Part shown: positions 28 through 16,549 of the stretch, piece by piece
Numbering within the stretch: the stretch's first letter is position 1
Layout: each line of letters opens with the position of its first letter
Source: a virus
Virus record (IMG/VR): IMGVR_UViG_3300032782_000001
Coordinates: 52,404 to 116,403 of that record
Strand: one strand, 5' to 3'
Length of the DNA stretch: 64,000 nucleotides
Made by a program: the position numbers and the translations under genes
Notes under the pieces: generated by a model
What the model was told of the DNA's origin: nothing
Database searches by the model: none
The model's input: only the letters and a program-made list of their open reading frames with translations

Positions 28-240
28 ATGGAGCTGACGTGTGTTAAGCGATTCCCTGATGGTACACGCTGCGGTGCAAAAGCCACCCTCGCGTATTTGA
101 CGACTGAAGGCAAACGGTTCGTCTATCGATGCGAGCAACATCCCATCAACAACAAGAAGCGGGCTTGGAATCAAGAATATATGCAGTGCCGCAAGATTCC
201 AATCGAAGAGGCTATCATCATGGAAGTCATGACTGCATGA
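28..240 (+). CDS. small Cys-rich protein, VMES-tail family
   Basis: 70 aa ORF ending ...EAIIMEVMTA; Cys pairs; stop TGA overlaps next ATG (ATGA). Confidence 0.5.
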   Translation: MELTCVKRFPDGTRCGAKATLAYLTTEGKRFVYRCEQHPINNKKRAWNQEYMQCRKIPIEEAIIMEVMTA

Positions 241-446
241 GTCCGGTCGAAGATTTCGAATGCGTCGTGAATGTGGAGGGAAGGGCCGCTTGCGACAAGA
301 TTGTCAGCGCTGTCCTGTTCCCCACTGACGGTTCCGAGGATCCGTGGCCCGTATGTAAGGACCACATAGATATTAATCTGTACGGCTACGGCCGGCGTGT
401 GGGGACAATTGAAGAGTTGATCATATTTGAAGTAATGAACTCATGA
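237..446 (+). CDS. small protein, VMES-tail family
   Basis: starts at ATG overlapping previous stop; ends ...EELIIFEVMNS; Cys/His rich. Confidence 0.5.
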   Translation: MSPVEDFECVVNVEGRAACDKIVSAVLFPTDGSEDPWPVCKDHIDINLYGYGRRVGTIEELIIFEVMNS

Positions 447-802
447 CTCGGACGATGCACGGGAAGAATCTCAGTGATGATGGGTTTGACTCATACATTC
501 AGACCCTTCTCCGTGCAAAATCCCAACCTGACCGAATGCGAACGCTGGAATGGATTATTGAAATCCAGACTTCACGAATACGTGGTATTATCATCCGGTT
601 CACGTTATACTTTATTCTGAACATTTGTGGGATCTGGTATCTTGGAACCAATTTCGTCAAAGAACCATGCTGGGGTTCTGGAACCGAGTTCGCATTCCTG
701 GCCATTTTCGGAGGTGTCGTCCTCGTCCATGACTTGTCCAAAATTCGGAACATCAGGAAATCATTGCGGGAAGCAATCGTGGCTTCCGTGATGGAATCAT
801 GA
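443..802 (+). CDS. small membrane protein, VMES-tail family
   Basis: 119 aa; two hydrophobic segments (IIRFTLYFILNICGIWYLG, FAFLAIFGGVVLV); ends ...EAIVASVMES. Confidence 0.55.
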   Translation: MTRTMHGKNLSDDGFDSYIQTLLRAKSQPDRMRTLEWIIEIQTSRIRGIIIRFTLYFILNICGIWYLGTNFVKEPCWGSGTEFAFLAIFGGVVLVHDLSKIRNIRKSLREAIVASVMES

Positions 803-805
803 TTC

Positions 806-1027
806 ATGACTGTCCTTTGTACTGAGCCTCGGCTTCCAGGAGAGACTCCGAGTCACGACTGGCAGAAAAAACGTGATTGGCACGGGGACTGGACTGGAAA
901 ATGGATTTGTTCTAATTGCAAGGAAATTCGAACTAACTGTAAACATGCGAATGGCGATTGGACGGGTCTCTTCATGGAAGATTGTCAAGAGCCCGAATGT
1001 GTAGTTCGTAGTGTGATGGAATCATGA
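806..1027 (+). CDS. small Cys-rich protein, VMES-tail family (CxEPECVV subgroup)
   Basis: 73 aa; ends ...CQEPECVVRSVMES; ATGA overlap with next gene. Confidence 0.55.
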   Translation: MTVLCTEPRLPGETPSHDWQKKRDWHGDWTGKWICSNCKEIRTNCKHANGDWTGLFMEDCQEPECVVRSVMES

Positions 1028-1275
1028 GGACTCTCGATATGGACATCGTCACGCAACGAGAGCACGTAAAAACTTGGTGTGTTATTCGGGTGGATGAGAA
1101 AACCGACGCATATCCTTCTAGGTATGAAGTATTTGGCCTCGGAGATGGACAGACGGCGGAGAGACTAAGGGAAACTGGCTATGCCGAAGAAGTCCTGATC
1201 GGTTTTCCGGATGAAGAATCGGCTACGGCAGTGGCAGAAAAACTAAACATGATCACCGAAATCATGGAATCATGA
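1024..1275 (+). CDS. small protein, VMES-tail family
   Basis: 83 aa; ends ...NMITEIMES; ATGA overlap. Confidence 0.5.
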   Translation: MRTLDMDIVTQREHVKTWCVIRVDEKTDAYPSRYEVFGLGDGQTAERLRETGYAEEVLIGFPDEESATAVAEKLNMITEIMES

Positions 1276-1481
1276 GTTTTGTCCGATGCAGCCACACTCG
1301 GACCGAGAAGGTATTCGAGGGGACTTTCTCTAATGTTGTCCATATCGAACGTTATCAATGCGAAGCTAATGCCATCGTATTCTTCACTCGTGGTGCTTTC
1401 TGCAAAGATCACGAACCGGAATCACTGGATGGTCAAATTTCCTTACAAGAATATGTCGTTCTCGAAGTCATGCGTTCATAA
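1272..1481 (+). CDS. small Cys-rich protein, VMES-tail family
   Basis: 69 aa; ends ...QEYVVLEVMRS. Confidence 0.5.
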   Translation: MSFVRCSHTRTEKVFEGTFSNVVHIERYQCEANAIVFFTRGAFCKDHEPESLDGQISLQEYVVLEVMRS

Positions 1482-1535
1482 GTTTGGCGTTGACGCCGGT
1501 ACAATAGGAAGCCACCCCATTCCCCACGGAGAATC

Positions 1536-2063
1536 ATGAGCATCTCGCATCTCATCGAGCAGAACGCGCAGCAGGATCATTCCAAGCCGGCTTGGAAGCC
1601 CGAATATCCGGCAGTCGGTTACCTCATCGCTACGGTCAAGGATGACCGCACCGAGATCGTCGAGGTCATGGCTTGGGATGAAGAGTATCCCGATATGCCC
1701 AATCGGGATCTTCTCAAGTACCCGAATCACTACGCCGTGCAGCTGTGCAAGAGCACGCACCGTCCGTTCCGGTACCACCGATTCTTCATTGGCACCATCC
1801 TGGCCAATGGCAAGTTCGTTTTCTCTGTGGCGCCGCGCGTCGATGACTGGAAGTCCGGATCTCCCAAGGTCGATTCTGGGTCGTGGGATGCCCTCCACAA
1901 GCTCCTCGAAGCGGCTGAGTCGTGGCAAGGTGGGGACGCATCGTTCCAGACCGATGGCTACGTCGAACGGTCTTCGGGCCCGCCTCAAACCTCTGGATTC
2001 CGAAAGACTGGAAAGACTGAGCGTGCTCGAGCTCGAGGCAAGGCCAAGCCCAAGTCGGACTAG
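1536..2063 (+). CDS. hypothetical protein
   Basis: 175 aa ORF; GGAG 8 nt upstream; no family tail (ends KPKSD). Confidence 0.5.
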   Translation: MSISHLIEQNAQQDHSKPAWKPEYPAVGYLIATVKDDRTEIVEVMAWDEEYPDMPNRDLLKYPNHYAVQLCKSTHRPFRYHRFFIGTILANGKFVFSVAPRVDDWKSGSPKVDSGSWDALHKLLEAAESWQGGDASFQTDGYVERSSGPPQTSGFRKTGKTERARARGKAKPKSD

Positions 2064-14907: not shown

Positions 14908-15161
14908 TTCCTCGCGAGAAATGCAGCGTTCCTGAGAAGTGCAATATTCCTGATCATCCTACTTACGGACCCGAATATTGGCAGCTCGTTGCTGGTCGGG
15001 CCACGCGATTCTTTATTCGCAATCAGCAAAGCGCTCCCCTCACTTGGCCTAATGAAATGGCCGTCTGTGATATTTGCTACAGGAAGTTTCCACAGATTCG
15101 AGATTACTGTATTGAAATAACCTACGAAGACTGGGTTGTACTCACAGTCATGGAGGCGTGA
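14865..15161 (+). CDS. small Cys-rich protein, VMES-tail family
   Basis: 98 aa; ends ...DWVVLTVMEA. Confidence 0.45.
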   Translation: MPSDVHCSGCHGVVIPREKCSVPEKCNIPDHPTYGPEYWQLVAGRATRFFIRNQQSAPLTWPNEMAVCDICYRKFPQIRDYCIEITYEDWVVLTVMEA

Positions 15162-15388
15162 TGCCTAAAGACAAATCTGTGGGGAAGAAAGCCATTCATA
15201 GGTGGGAACTGGCCGAAAACGGGCCCGGTTTCGATGATATGCGAGCTTACGTTTGCAAGCGTTGCGGTGTTGGCCCAGTGACTGTCCGAGTCTTGGACGG
15301 GAAATTCAGTATTAACAAAACCGCCAAACAACAAGGCATCTCATCGGACTGCAATTTCGAGACAGTAAAGGGCGTGATGGAATCCTGA
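15158..15388 (+). CDS. small zinc-ribbon protein, VMES-tail family
   Basis: 76 aa; CKRCG; ends ...FETVKGVMES. Confidence 0.45.
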   Translation: MMPKDKSVGKKAIHRWELAENGPGFDDMRAYVCKRCGVGPVTVRVLDGKFSINKTAKQQGISSDCNFETVKGVMES

Positions 15389-15389
15389 G

Positions 15390-15605
15390 ATGAGGTGCCA
15401 TGGCCGCCATCCAGGAGTGGCTTTCACGGTATTTGGTCCATGTAATAATGAAGCCGTTAAACTCATTAACTGTCCATCCTTGCCATGGAGTGGTCAAAAG
15501 AACACAATCCGACCGATTTGTGAAGAATGCGCTTCAGACGCACCTGACGGTAGTCGAATTCTGAGTTCTGAAGAATTCATTGTTTGGGAGATCATGGAGA
15601 GTTGA
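15390..15605 (+). CDS. small Cys-rich protein, VMES-tail family
   Basis: 71 aa; ends ...EEFIVWEIMES. Confidence 0.45.
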   Translation: MRCHGRHPGVAFTVFGPCNNEAVKLINCPSLPWSGQKNTIRPICEECASDAPDGSRILSSEEFIVWEIMES

Positions 15606-15849
15606 CATCATCGGACGTTTGTCCGGTGTAGCTTGCATTATGGACGATCTATCCATGGAATTTAAGCAATCTGAAGGCCGCGTTTCCATCATCGCCCGGA
15701 ATCGTTCTTTATCGTTCTCGGGCACCGGAGCGAATCAAGAACATGCAGTCCGGAGCTTAGAGAATGCTCTTCGTGGGCAACTCGGGCCGAATTTCGACTT
15801 TCAAATTCACCCGGATAAGCAACGGGTGGAAATTCGGCCCAAGCCGTGA
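15580..15849 (+). CDS. hypothetical protein
   Basis: 89 aa. Confidence 0.35.
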   Translation: MFGRSWRVDIIGRLSGVACIMDDLSMEFKQSEGRVSIIARNRSLSFSGTGANQEHAVRSLENALRGQLGPNFDFQIHPDKQRVEIRPKP

Positions 15850-16115
15850 AGCATGAATGGAAAAAGCCGGTCCCATGTGATCCGGCCCCACGTCTCCAAA
15901 AGACGTGCTCTAAATGCGGACTCCAAGTCAGTTTCACACTTGCTGGAGACGCAGTCACTAATCGGGCCGTCTTTATCGACGGTCAATGGAATTTCTCCAT
16001 CAAGAAAGATCCGGAGTGCGTTCGTCATGCACCCCGTAGTCCAAAGGTGAAACGAGAATTCACCGAGGCCCAGAGATTCACTTTCCAAGCGCCGATCAGG
16101 AAATCTGAATCGTAG
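15846..16115 (+). CDS. hypothetical Cys-rich protein
   Basis: 89 aa; CSKCG. Confidence 0.35.
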   Translation: MKHEWKKPVPCDPAPRLQKTCSKCGLQVSFTLAGDAVTNRAVFIDGQWNFSIKKDPECVRHAPRSPKVKREFTEAQRFTFQAPIRKSES

Positions 16116-16129
16116 ATGTAAATCTTCGA

Positions 16130-16549
16130 ATGTCGCCTGAAAAGTCAGACCTAAGTGAACTCGATCAGGCCACGGAAGACCTCAACGAAGGTCTTCTTCA
16201 AGCCGAATCGGCCCTTCGGTCTAGAAATCTTGGAGTTTCCGCAGGCATCACGTTCCTTCATAATAGCCGGATTTGCATGCTTTATTTTAAAAAGCGTGGT
16301 GATGAATGGTGTTTCATCGTCTCTGGACCTGACGTTCCGGAAACTCATCTCTTGTCTGCTTCAAGATCCTTACGAGTGGAAGCGGCAGCACACCTTCGAG
16401 AGCTGTACAAAGCAATGGTTTCTGAAGAACAGAACCAACTCGAAGTTGTCAACAAAGCCATTAAAGACGTTTACAACTTCATCGGCGATGTGAATGCCAA
16501 TAACTTGGATTTCGGGCGACTCTGGCCGCCCGACCTCAGAAATCCATAA
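16130..16549 (+). CDS. hypothetical protein
   Basis: 139 aa. Confidence 0.4.
   Translation: MSPEKSDLSELDQATEDLNEGLLQAESALRSRNLGVSAGITFLHNSRICMLYFKKRGDEWCFIVSGPDVPETHLLSASRSLRVEAAAHLRELYKAMVSEEQNQLEVVNKAIKDVYNFIGDVNANNLDFGRLWPPDLRNP

Follow-up and report, generated by a model that had tools for sequence, protein, structure and literature searches.

Genes at the locus and the shared C-terminal tail

The DNA analysed here, referred to as the window, comprises the 64,000 nucleotides (nt) from position 52,404 to 116,403 of the IMG/VR record IMGVR_UViG_3300032782_000001. It is part of a 436,316-bp phage contig from a JGI (Joint Genome Institute) metagenome, and further assemblies of the same phage come from ENA (ERZ27256589) and from an SRA run (SRR8881007). 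Its gene content is that of a huge phage and includes collagen-like tail fibres, RtcB, NAPRTase, an M16 peptidase, a PP2C phosphatase and an EF-Tu homologue. Among these genes lie many small open reading frames (ORFs) whose products end in one short peptide, typically [ILV]-[VI]-x-x-[VI]-M-[ED]-S immediately 5' of the stop codon, which we call the tail.

We counted six-frame stop-to-stop ORFs of at least 30 amino acids (aa) with a C-terminus matching [VI]M.[STA]. Such endings occur on 46 of the 652 plus-strand ORFs of the window and on 1 of the 694 minus-strand ORFs (11681..11977), and three further ORFs of the array carry variant tails (EIHEL at 3111, AVQEE at 5756 and EIHDS at 5962), giving a total of 50 tailed ORFs (plus strand 49, minus strand 1). 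An earlier note on this DNA had estimated about 48 tailed small genes, against the 50 counted here, and the copies lie at the positions it had listed. Between base 28 and about 15.6 kb the tailed ORFs are arrayed head to tail; a second cluster lies at 34.0-36.4 kb, with single copies at 18.0, 20.6, 21.2-21.7, 42.6, 48.3, 53.2 and 63.1-64.0 kb, besides the minus-strand copy.

The part of this genome that we inspected covers 84 of its 436 kb (the window plus 20 kb of flanks). The array does not begin at the start of the window, as the earlier note had it, since tailed ORFs go on for at least 9.5 kb upstream. These 9.5 kb contain 8 more tailed ORFs around a DNA ligase gene, one of them of 314 aa, and the 10 kb downstream contain 3 more, two of which are on the opposite strand. 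The inspected 84 kb thus hold at least 61 tailed genes (50 in the window and 11 in the flanks).

Two groups of paralogues with putative zinc ligands, of 14 members each, account for 28 of the 50 window tails. Family A shows the pattern C..C..A..F..C..H, a variable loop and then [S/T]-x-E-E-x-I-V-x-E-V-M-E-S, whereas family B shows M..H-x-W, CxxC(G), a variable loop and then C-[D/E]-x-x-x-V-R-x-V-M-E-S. The tailed ORFs of the window are listed below; their ends are exact, and several of the start codons are approximate.

Tailed ORFs of the window (coordinates, strand, description)
28..240 (+): family A (zinc pattern C..C..A..C..H), end EEAIIMEVMTA
237..446 (+): family A, end EELIIFEVMNS
443..802 (+): two hydrophobic segments resembling transmembrane (TM) helices, end REAIVASVMES
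806..1027 (+): family B-like (HxW..CxxC..C), end EPECVVRSVMES
1024..1275 (+): body without zinc motif, end LNMITEIMES
1272..1481 (+): family A, end LQEYVVLEVMRS, TAA stop, uncoupled from the next gene
2070..2636 (+): 188 aa, as read from the sequence: N-terminal family-A domain, internal degenerate tail TREEFFVLAILGV, extra domain, end TAIVMRVMES
2633..2869 (+): family A, end DEAIVAEVMNS
2866..3111 (+): family A, variant end GEFVTWEIHEL (H for M)
3108..3335 (+): family A, end FEEYIVNEVMRS
3332..3595 (+): family A-like, end FEEWIVSIVMES
3651..3953 (+): family B with a 30-nt tandem duplication, end CGLLIVQKIMES
3957..4265 (+): family A-like, end IDILIVMEIMES
4262..4489 (+): family A, end SRLKIVSEIMTA
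4486..4953 (+): 155-aa fusion, as read from the sequence: family-A domain (internal AISEIINT) and family-B domain, end CDEEIIAAVMES
4950..5159 (+): Cys-rich, end NNLCIVADIMES
5218..5532 (+): Cys-rich, end CGLKIVETIMES
5529..5756 (+): family B, variant end CDEIVVWAVQEE (Q for M)
5753..5962 (+): family A, variant end GEFLVREIHDS
5983..6207 (+): family A, end LEEDVVYGVMES
6204..6509 (+): two CxxC pairs, end NECLVAEVMDS
6506..6790 (+): TM-like segments, end KNLLVFEVMES
6787..6975 (+): family B (P0003), end CDVEMIRQVMES
6972..7199 (+): Cys-less body, end AKLFVKEVMES
9021..9467 (+): tailed ORF, start uncertain, end INMFVISEVMES
9767..9955 (+): family B, end CDLAIVEAVMES
10281..10610 (+): Cys-rich N-terminal part, then a charged stretch that looks helical by eye, end RLDVIRTVMDS
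10612..10830 (+): family B (P0009), end CAEAIIRQVMDS, TAG stop, uncoupled
11681..11977 (-): sole minus-strand copy of the window, end DPECVVRFVMRS, TAG stop
12445..12765 (+): tailed ORF, end RRLIIVQSVMES
12767..13258 (+): 163-aa tailed ORF, end NMQTVREVMEA
14713..14907 (+): tailed ORF, end HPMCIVRDVMES
14904..15161 (+): family A, end YEDWVVLTVMEA
15161..15388 (+): family B, end CNFETVKGVMES
15390..15605 (+): family A, end SEEFIVWEIMES
17807..18166 (+): tailed ORF directly after RtcB, start uncertain (probably downstream of 17997), end EPECVVQHVMES
20562..20909 (+): isolated tailed ORF, end DWYCVCFVMDS, TAG stop
21192..21422 (+): tailed ORF, end GLRIIFQVMES
21424..21693 (+): tailed ORF, end DLAAVSQVMDT, TAG stop
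34072..34272 (+): family B, end CPTKIVREVMDS
34269..34511 (+): tailed ORF, end AFLVIVRDVMGS
34511..34717 (+): family B (P0002), end CDLQVVDNVMES
34714..34959 (+): family A, modelled with AlphaFold2 (predicted zinc beta-domain), end FEEAIVAEVMES, TAA stop
35953..36165 (+): family B (P0006), end CDLQYVREIMES
36165..36356 (+): family B (P0005), about 230 nt 5' of the collagen-like tail-fibre genes, end CDLSIVQRIMES
42571..42801 (+): family B, modelled with AlphaFold2 (three predicted strands and helix 65-75), end CDEEMVRKVMES, TAA stop
48249..48524 (+): tailed ORF within the tRNA island, next same-strand feature a tRNA, end KEFLVFSVMAS
53211..53429 (+): family B (P0004), tRNA-Thr 4 nt further on, end CELELVRQVMQS, TAG stop
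63078..63455 (+): tailed ORF, end DSFLIASVMES
63510..63962 (+): 150-aa tailed ORF, end RESIIIEIMNS, TAA stop

Frequency and consensus of the tail

From amino-acid frequencies, roughly 0.3 tails would be expected by chance on each strand. There were no terminal matches in ten related huge-phage loci (203 kb, GC 0.32-0.62), nor in about 80 kb from two published huge-phage genomes. A cellular control with one genome per bacterial or archaeal species gave 44 isolated pattern matches, consistent with chance, and no arrays; in the 311 kb surrounding these matches, a second tail was found at none of the loci. Altogether the control DNA amounts to about 600 kb with 0 tails, compared with 50 in the window where fewer than 1 is expected. 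The earlier observation of a shared tail is thus confirmed.

The conservation extends to positions that were not used for selecting the ORFs: V or I is found at position -7 in 49 of the 50 tails, I, V, L or M at -8 in 44, and E or L at -10 in 37. Position -12 is Cys in 14 of the 50, and Glu at -2 is present in 64% of the window tails and in 73% of the tails on other contigs. The fuller consensus, covering the last 8-12 residues, is [C/S/T]-[D/E]-[E/L]-x-[I/L/V]-V-x-x-V-M-[E/D]-S-COOH. The stop codons of the 50 tailed genes are TGA (41), TAG (5) and TAA (4).

Terminal position, fusions and translational coupling

The pattern [IVLMF][VI]xx[VI]M[x][SAT] occurs 42 times directly before a stop codon in the window and 0 times internally. 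For 35 other multi-tail loci the corresponding numbers are 101 terminal and 4 internal, the latter being the background rate in the controls.

Two fusion genes contain what was formerly a family-A tail in an internal position. Read from the sequence, it is T-R-E-E-F-F-V-L-A-I-L-G-V in 2070..2636 and A-I-S-E-I-I-N-T in 4486..4953. In both, the buried tail retains the cap and the hydrophobic pattern, and Met, Glu and Ser are gone; Met, which is invariant at the terminus, is replaced by Ile or Leu. As M-E-S is lost in the fusions but the hydrophobic pattern is kept, two layers of constraint are suggested, i.e. a helix relevant to the fold and an M-E-S-COOH end that would be relevant only as a free C-terminus.

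The junctions between tailed genes and the genes that follow them are mostly 4-nt NTGA overlaps, confirming the translational coupling described in the earlier note. At least 10 tailed genes precede a tRNA, a gap, a convergent gene or a TAA/TAG stop without a coupled downstream gene, and these uncoupled genes mostly end in TAA or TAG. Untailed genes within the arrays show the same coupling. Because at least 10 tailed genes are uncoupled downstream, the tail is independent of translational coupling. We rejected recoding of TGA and a joining of neighbouring ORFs by frameshift, as the next ORF is out of frame, there is no slippery sequence at the junction and no suppressor tRNA is present among the 44 tRNAs. 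A scan of the array for sigma-70 promoters and terminators gave counts no different from those in shuffled sequences.

Distribution on other contigs

Tails elsewhere were found mainly by DNA-pattern scans, which were far more productive than profile searches. A profile of the 42-aa C-termini matched nothing beyond the proteins of the window itself, and a HMMER scan of 1.84 billion proteins returned 5 matches, one of them new (P0007); matches are few because a motif of 12 residues cannot attain significance. Multiple tails were detected on IMG/VR contigs 3300028920_000001 (427 kb, GC 0.36; both strands, bodies of 50-315 aa), 3300012980_000004 (393 kb; members of families A and B) and 3300033402_000027 (41 kb), and at least 25 further metagenome contigs carry 2-10 tails each. 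Contig 3300012980_000004 also encodes a 54%-identical orthologue of the window ORF 33341..34069. The 107 non-redundant tails on other contigs, at GC 0.36-0.68, give the same logo, [C/x]-[D/E]-[E/L]-x-[I/L/V/T]-V-x-x-V-M-E-S, and the tailed bodies of these contigs include proteins 200-315 aa long as well as a membrane protein and one that resembles a lipoprotein. The last of these, a 163-aa protein at 5555-6046 of IMGVR_UViG_3300033402_000027 (locus L035), has a lipoprotein-like signal (MKLALLGSSVILMLVAC), long Ser-rich linkers and a Cys-rich end terminating in CANLKIVAEIMES; its tail would be non-cytoplasmic if the protein is exported.

Also encoded in the window is a protein of 868 aa that contains major-vault-protein shoulder and repeat domains (SPFH-like; 30600-33206, minus strand), with the PP2C phosphatase gene nearby (28681-29514, minus strand). 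Homologues of the vault-like protein were found on ten IMG/VR huge-phage contigs (41-55% identity), and LR756500 (462 kb) and LR756501 (735 kb) encode proteins with 44-45% identity to it. The ten phages have no tails in the 20 kb around the vault gene, whereas the phage studied here has eight there. Since these relatives are tail-less near that gene while other contigs are multi-tailed, the tag is widespread yet confined to certain lineages.

A 372-aa AAA_5 (MoxR-like) ATPase gene adjoins tail arrays at three loci (L119 3913-5031, L122 994-2112 and L132 12180-13298), and the ATPase is 57% identical between two tail-bearing phage lineages. It was rejected as a tail-specific receptor, since a 26%-identical homologue is present in the tail-less locus L011 and none is visible in the inspected 84 kb. 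An unrelated 67-aa hydrophobic ORF ending in LLLIVLVRLLIVRLVMES is present as a single copy on five small viral contigs (L001, L003, L005, L006 and L153); it has no neighbouring tails and is probably a chance match to the DNA pattern.

Selection at the peptide level

Within the tails, third codon positions carry only 0.05-0.35 bits, and the codons used at Ile(-8), Val(-7) and Glu(-2) are the same as in the gene bodies (p = 0.31-0.46). Ser(-1) is the only residue with skewed codons, towards TCA/TCG (p = 4e-8); TCA or TCG followed by a TGA stop yields the ATGA or GTGA overlap in which the next gene starts. The DNA identity of tails is merely 60-78% across 26-41 nt. The hydrophobic positions vary non-synonymously among I, V, L, M and T, and Met(-3) is replaced by His or Gln only, whose codons have no base in common with ATG; a Met-to-His change was seen between orthologues (VKEVMES vs IKSIHES). 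Rfam gave no family match in the tail arrays. The tail is thus selected as an amino-acid sequence and not as a DNA repeat, as the earlier note had argued; codon use, wobble-position information, the 60-78% DNA identity and the GC range of 0.36-0.68 all bear this out. Its codon examples need correction, as 'att' encodes Ile and 'gat' Asp, which are conservative substitutions rather than synonymous codons.

Bodies of the tailed proteins and predicted structures

In this phage the bodies of tailed proteins span 50-314 aa, most tailed proteins being 60-100 aa long. The earlier description of the bodies as otherwise unrelated is wrong for the 28 of 50 that belong to families A and B. After removal of the tails, family B alone was detectable by BLAST, weakly, and its alignment contains no conserved stretch of 7-10 columns. 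The last Cys of family B coincides with tail position -12, where it would serve as the third Cys ligand at the N-terminus of the tail helix. We compared the bodies of both families with zinc-ribbon and treble-clef-like proteins, which are defined by four Cys/His ligands on knuckles or on a helix N-terminus. The remaining 22 tailed ORFs encode proteins with TM-like segments (443..802 and 6506..6790), Cys-less bodies, Cys-rich proteins and ORFans of 150-190 aa. No N-terminal motif is common to all tailed members.

None of the 50 tailed window proteins matched Pfam, and PHROGs returned two marginal matches only, both of unknown function (E about 0.003-0.01). Likewise, ten larger tailed proteins encoded on other contigs had no credible match, the sole match, RE_AlwI with E = 0.01, being below the Pfam cut-off. 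A homologue search with the 314-aa tailed protein returned only itself. The bodies had no orthologues in the ten related phages, where tblastn looked for tail-less versions of tailed proteins and found none. In one orthologue pair (144 aa and 149 aa), which aligns over the full length with about half of the positions identical by eye, the ends are VKEVMES and IKSIHES; a pair of 314 aa and 346 aa is barely alignable and has the tail on both proteins. The tail is absent from all recognisable enzymes and structural proteins of the inspected 84 kb, among them RtcB, ligase, NAPRTase, EF-Tu, HNH and PLD, as well as CYTH, PP2C, Dam and tail-fibre proteins.

From the paralogue alignments of the two families, AlphaFold2 predicts three strands and a terminal helix (residues 65-75) for family B (mean pLDDT, the predicted local distance difference test score, 73; tail about 85). 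For family A it predicts a beta-rich domain, a low-confidence loop, a strand (65-68) and a helix (70-80), with a mean pLDDT of 77. Fold searches with both models gave no significant structural neighbour.

Other features of the window

Several untailed genes lie in or near the arrays: a CYTH-domain protein (7902-8447, minus strand), an HNH endonuclease (8429-8740, plus strand) and a PLD-family nuclease whose N-terminus resembles a signal peptide by eye (10864-11490, plus strand). An untailed M16 (insulinase-type) peptidase (54375-55643, plus strand) is the sole protease seen in the window. The duplication in the family-B gene 3651-3953 is an in-frame 30-nt tandem copy (3812-3873, plus strand; 96% identical) that repeats the peptide VSVLDGAYMN.

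A tRNA island at 45088-62762 (plus strand) contains 44 tRNA genes as detected by ARAGORN, covering most amino acids, to which Rfam adds a few weak ones; interspersed in it are the tailed ORFs 48249-48524 and 53211-53429 and homing-endonuclease-like genes. A group I catalytic intron (45647-45877, plus strand; Rfam RF00028, 76.6 bits, E = 1e-17) is flanked by tRNA-Gln (45320-45393) and ORF 45941-46483. A tandem repeat at 47008-47419 (plus strand; unit 165-169 nt, 2.4 copies, 78% matches) has units that hold tRNA-like 3' halves (GGTTCGACTCC). The EF-Tu homologue (49184-50365, plus strand) has an intact GTPase domain and domain 2, and its domain 3 matches only the first 38 of 106 positions; a GIY-YIG endonuclease gene (50434-51330, plus strand) follows directly, and the EF-Tu gene may have been interrupted by a mobile element. 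Further on, an HNH endonuclease gene (60192-60704, plus strand) adjoins a short histidyl-tRNA-synthetase-like ORF of about 200 aa (60942-61559, plus strand), after which comes a 3'-5' exoribonuclease-like ORF (61696-62262).

Possible function of the tail

On balance, we consider it probable that the tail serves as a recognition tag, portable and strictly C-terminal, and that one common receptor reads it together with its free carboxylate. A short terminal helix would contain the hydrophobic positions -8, -7, -4 and -3, and in the zinc families it probably also helps to hold the small domain together. The receptor would read the invariant Met-Glu-Ser and the free carboxylate, following the logic of peroxisomal SKL-COOH or of the ssrA LAA-COOH. 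From such a reading of M-E-S and carboxylate we infer that the tag would give a large, fast-evolving set of small accessory proteins one common fate. The common recognition event proposed in the earlier note is indirectly supported by the terminal-only motif, by the loss of M-E-S in internal copies and by the presence of the tail on zinc-binding, membrane and ORFan bodies in distantly related phages. That note's remark that no such family had been described also holds: the tailed proteins have no credible Pfam or PHROG match, and we found no description of the tag in Pfam, PHROGs or the searchable literature. Hundreds more proteins across metagenomes carry the tag, and the class very probably shares a partner or a fate.

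Several observations weigh against a docked recognition tag. No receptor was identified, and PDZ, TPR, AAA+ unfoldase and BMC (bacterial microcompartment) domains were not found in the inspected 84 kb; the sole protease (M16 peptidase, 54375..55643) is not known to be connected with the recognition of C-terminal peptides. In the AlphaFold2 models of families A and B the tail is a confident helix (pLDDT about 70-85) that ends a compact domain. Because of this and of the Cys ligand at the N-terminus of the family-B helix, the conservation from -12 to -3 is plausibly structural in part, and a tail helix, if buried, would be a poor docking peptide. Furthermore, the helical hydrophobic moment of the tails (0.32) is close to that of control 11-mers of the same proteins (0.30).

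For the tagged proteins, the fate that we tentatively favour, by analogy, is loading into the procapsid and ejection into the next host with the DNA, which we regard as possible rather than probable. It is favoured because of the similarity to the T-even capsid targeting sequence (CTS), the contents of giant-phage heads, the protein sizes and the likeness of V-M-E|S to a protease site. The common size of 60-100 aa is in the range of T4 IPI*. T-even internal proteins form a highly diverse set of which the CTS is the only common part (PMC3012670), and giant-phage heads contain about 50 proteins, mostly unprocessed and without a known targeting signal (PMC10052503). The prohead proteases of T4-type and phiKZ-type phages cleave at x-X-E motifs, which V-M-E|S resembles (motif per PMC5694885). 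Like the tail, the CTS is a short conserved terminal peptide and the only part common to hypervariable small phage proteins; the CTS leads to the encapsidation and ejection of them all (PMC3012670, PMC5694885). Both are carried by diverse small proteins in variable arrays (here head-to-tail ORFs of 60-190 aa). The CTS ends in a hydrophobic-x-Glu protease site; the tail contains V-M-E. In contrast, the CTS is N-terminal (10-20 residues), is removed by the prohead protease and is found on a handful of proteins, whereas the tag is C-terminal in 50 window copies and 101 others and occurs on at least 61 proteins, including membrane proteins; the two share no sequence similarity. Other points also count against capsid loading. 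The tail is found on membrane proteins and on the lipoprotein-like L035 protein, the main array lies amid ligase, nuclease and RtcB genes and not among head genes, and no prohead protease gene was seen in the inspected 84 kb. Glu(-2) is only 64-73% conserved, so that there is no strict protease site, and a cut after it would take off one residue only. Taken at its furthest, the proposal, which we put forward tentatively, is of a hitherto unrecognised pathway by which a lineage of huge phages would deliver proteins: the VMES tail would be its sorting signal on at least a hundred fast-evolving small effectors, and a dedicated receptor would read it and load them into the capsid, or into another phage-built structure, on the way to the next host.

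Explanations without a common receptor differ in how much of the tail they account for. At the DNA level, the conserved 12-15 nt (ATGGAATCATGA) could be a recombination or cassette junction or a translation-initiation signal, with the peptide as a by-product; the copies do have a short exact core in common that includes the start of the next gene, and the Ser(-1) codons are skewed to TCA/TCG. The rest of the tail, however, has the codon use of gene bodies, its hydrophobic positions are preserved despite non-synonymous changes (I, V, L, M, T), and M gives way to H or Q and not to near-cognate codons. One peptide is found at both GC 0.36 and GC 0.68, uncoupled copies and the minus-strand copy retain it, and Rfam gives no match in the array. 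The codon-use, wobble and GC-range results already largely refute this explanation, which we consider extremely improbable. Somewhat less so, but still very unlikely, is an action of the last 12 residues inside the ribosome, where a TnaC-like pause at the stop codon would delay termination and lead to re-initiation or transcript protection. A typical arrest peptide has about the length of the conserved part of the tail, which, like the critical nascent-chain residues of TnaC-like peptides, abuts the stop codon with variable sequence upstream; the NTGA overlap with the next start in most tailed genes and the loss of M-E-S from non-terminal tails fit as well. TnaC-like peptides nevertheless control a downstream gene and depend on one release factor, whereas what comes after at least 10 tailed genes is a tRNA, a gap or a convergent gene rather than a coupled one, TGA, TAG and TAA are all used, which speaks against release-factor specificity, and array genes without a tail are coupled likewise. 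The zinc-ligand Cys and the cap-like residues point instead to a role in the folded protein. That role could be purely structural, all tails being inherited from one small zinc-binding ancestor as its slow-evolving core helix; this is improbable in our view, if less so than the two preceding explanations. It would agree with the 28 of 50 tails in two zinc-binding families, the compact AlphaFold2 models with the tail helix at their end, Cys(-12) as a ligand in family B, the S/T-x-E-E ahead of the helix that resembles an N-cap box by eye, and the hydrophobic pattern that survives in internalised tails. What it leaves unexplained is that more than 140 tails end exactly at Ser with neither extension nor internal copy, that Met is invariant at the terminus and becomes Ile or Leu when internal, that E-S is conserved, and that the same eight residues stand on membrane proteins, Cys-less bodies and ORFans of 200-314 aa.

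Other fates would keep a common receptor. The tail could be a C-terminal degron for an AAA+ protease (FtsH-like or ClpXP-like) or a phage adaptor, conferring a short programmed lifetime, which we think unlikely but the most credible of these alternatives. Such a signal would stand at the exact C-terminus, as do ssrA and the lambda CII tag; the tail is missing from enzymes and structural proteins that must persist, and if the protease were a universally conserved one of the host, a motif unchanged across GC 0.36-0.68 would be accounted for. By the title of Herman et al. 2003 (cited in PMC8138137), FtsH lacks robust unfoldase activity, and its properties would suit small soluble and TM-containing tailed proteins. 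FtsH substrates are cytoplasmic and membrane proteins alike, and the lambda CII degron for FtsH is RSEQIQMEF-COOH (PMC8138137), a phage sequence that has Met(-3)-Glu(-2) in common with VMES. As in ssrA, lambda CII and SKL signals, the tail sits at the exact C-terminus of any protein body with very few determinant residues, but none of these has I-V-x-x-V-M-E-S and the likeness to CII amounts to three residues. The known bacterial C-terminal degrons are disordered and have non-polar ends (LAA; LpxC ...AVLA), whereas the tail ends in polar E-S and is predicted to be helical (pLDDT about 70-85), and near the arrays no protease or adaptor was found except the M16 peptidase. PTS1 (peroxisomal targeting signal 1; SKL-COOH, read by Pex5) is a eukaryotic signal, and no bacterium or phage is known in which dozens of proteins, paralogous and not, carry a gene-encoded degron. 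A co-assembly or compartment tag resembling a BMC encapsulation peptide, by which the proteins would bind one another, a shell or a scaffold and become concentrated in a condensate or a phage-made compartment, seems doubtful to us, more so than the degron. Encapsulation peptides are short terminal helices, N- or C-terminal (PMC4594438), that cause condensation and co-assembly of any fused cargo (PMC12339742). The EutC encapsulation peptide MDQKQIEEIVRSVMAS (PMC3299773) is a near-exact fit to E-E-x-I-V-x-x-V-M-x-S, its residues 6-16 (IEEIVRSVMAS) matching the tail pattern, a fit that was spotted after the fact; the peptides of EutC, PduD and PduP share with the tail a short, portable terminal helix (in the tail a predicted one) with paired hydrophobic residues at i, i+1, i+4 and i+5 after acidic ones. 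The phage also has its 868-aa vault-shoulder/SPFH protein, but this is present as well in ten relatives without tails nearby, and no BMC shell domain (BMC or EutN, Pfam) was found among the ORFs scanned in the 84 kb. Moreover, BMC peptides are about 18 aa long, occur on few enzymes beside shell genes, have a disordered linker and need no exact terminus, as further residues may follow. The position of the tail, in contrast, is absolute; in family B the Cys ligand directly precedes the helix with no linker, and in family A strand and helix follow the variable loop without a gap. The amphipathic BMC helix spans about 15-20 residues, compared with a predicted terminal helix of 11 residues in the tail, whose hydrophobic moment is unremarkable (0.32 vs 0.30 in controls).

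The tag fails defining features of each known system tested (T4 CTS, BMC peptides, ssrA/CII degrons). Dot/Icm type IV effectors provide a further comparison: hundreds of unrelated proteins of one genome carry a loose C-terminal signal, acidic with a hydrophobic residue near -3 or -4, that is read by one coupling complex. Their signal is degenerate, unlike the sharp motif described here, and belongs to a cellular secretion system; no such machinery was seen in the inspected DNA. What is new in the tail is the motif, its C-terminal position in a phage and the number of proteins that carry it (at least 61 in 84 kb), whereas the logic of a terminal address peptide is familiar.

Most genes of huge phages have neither a known function nor a handle by which to group them, and here an eight-residue C-terminal signature groups at least 61 proteins. 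Should the tail prove to be a sorting signal, a large phage accessory proteome would for the first time have an address label that can be read from sequence; the label would lead to its receptor, and candidate effectors and anti-defence proteins could be catalogued from metagenomes. If delivery with the DNA proves true, the injected effector repertoire of uncultivated phages would become readable from sequence, and the tag would offer a handle for loading foreign cargo. Should it instead prove a degron, phage early proteins would for the first time be seen to carry a gene-encoded timer on a genome-wide scale. On either reading, an anonymous block of ORFans becomes a testable system.

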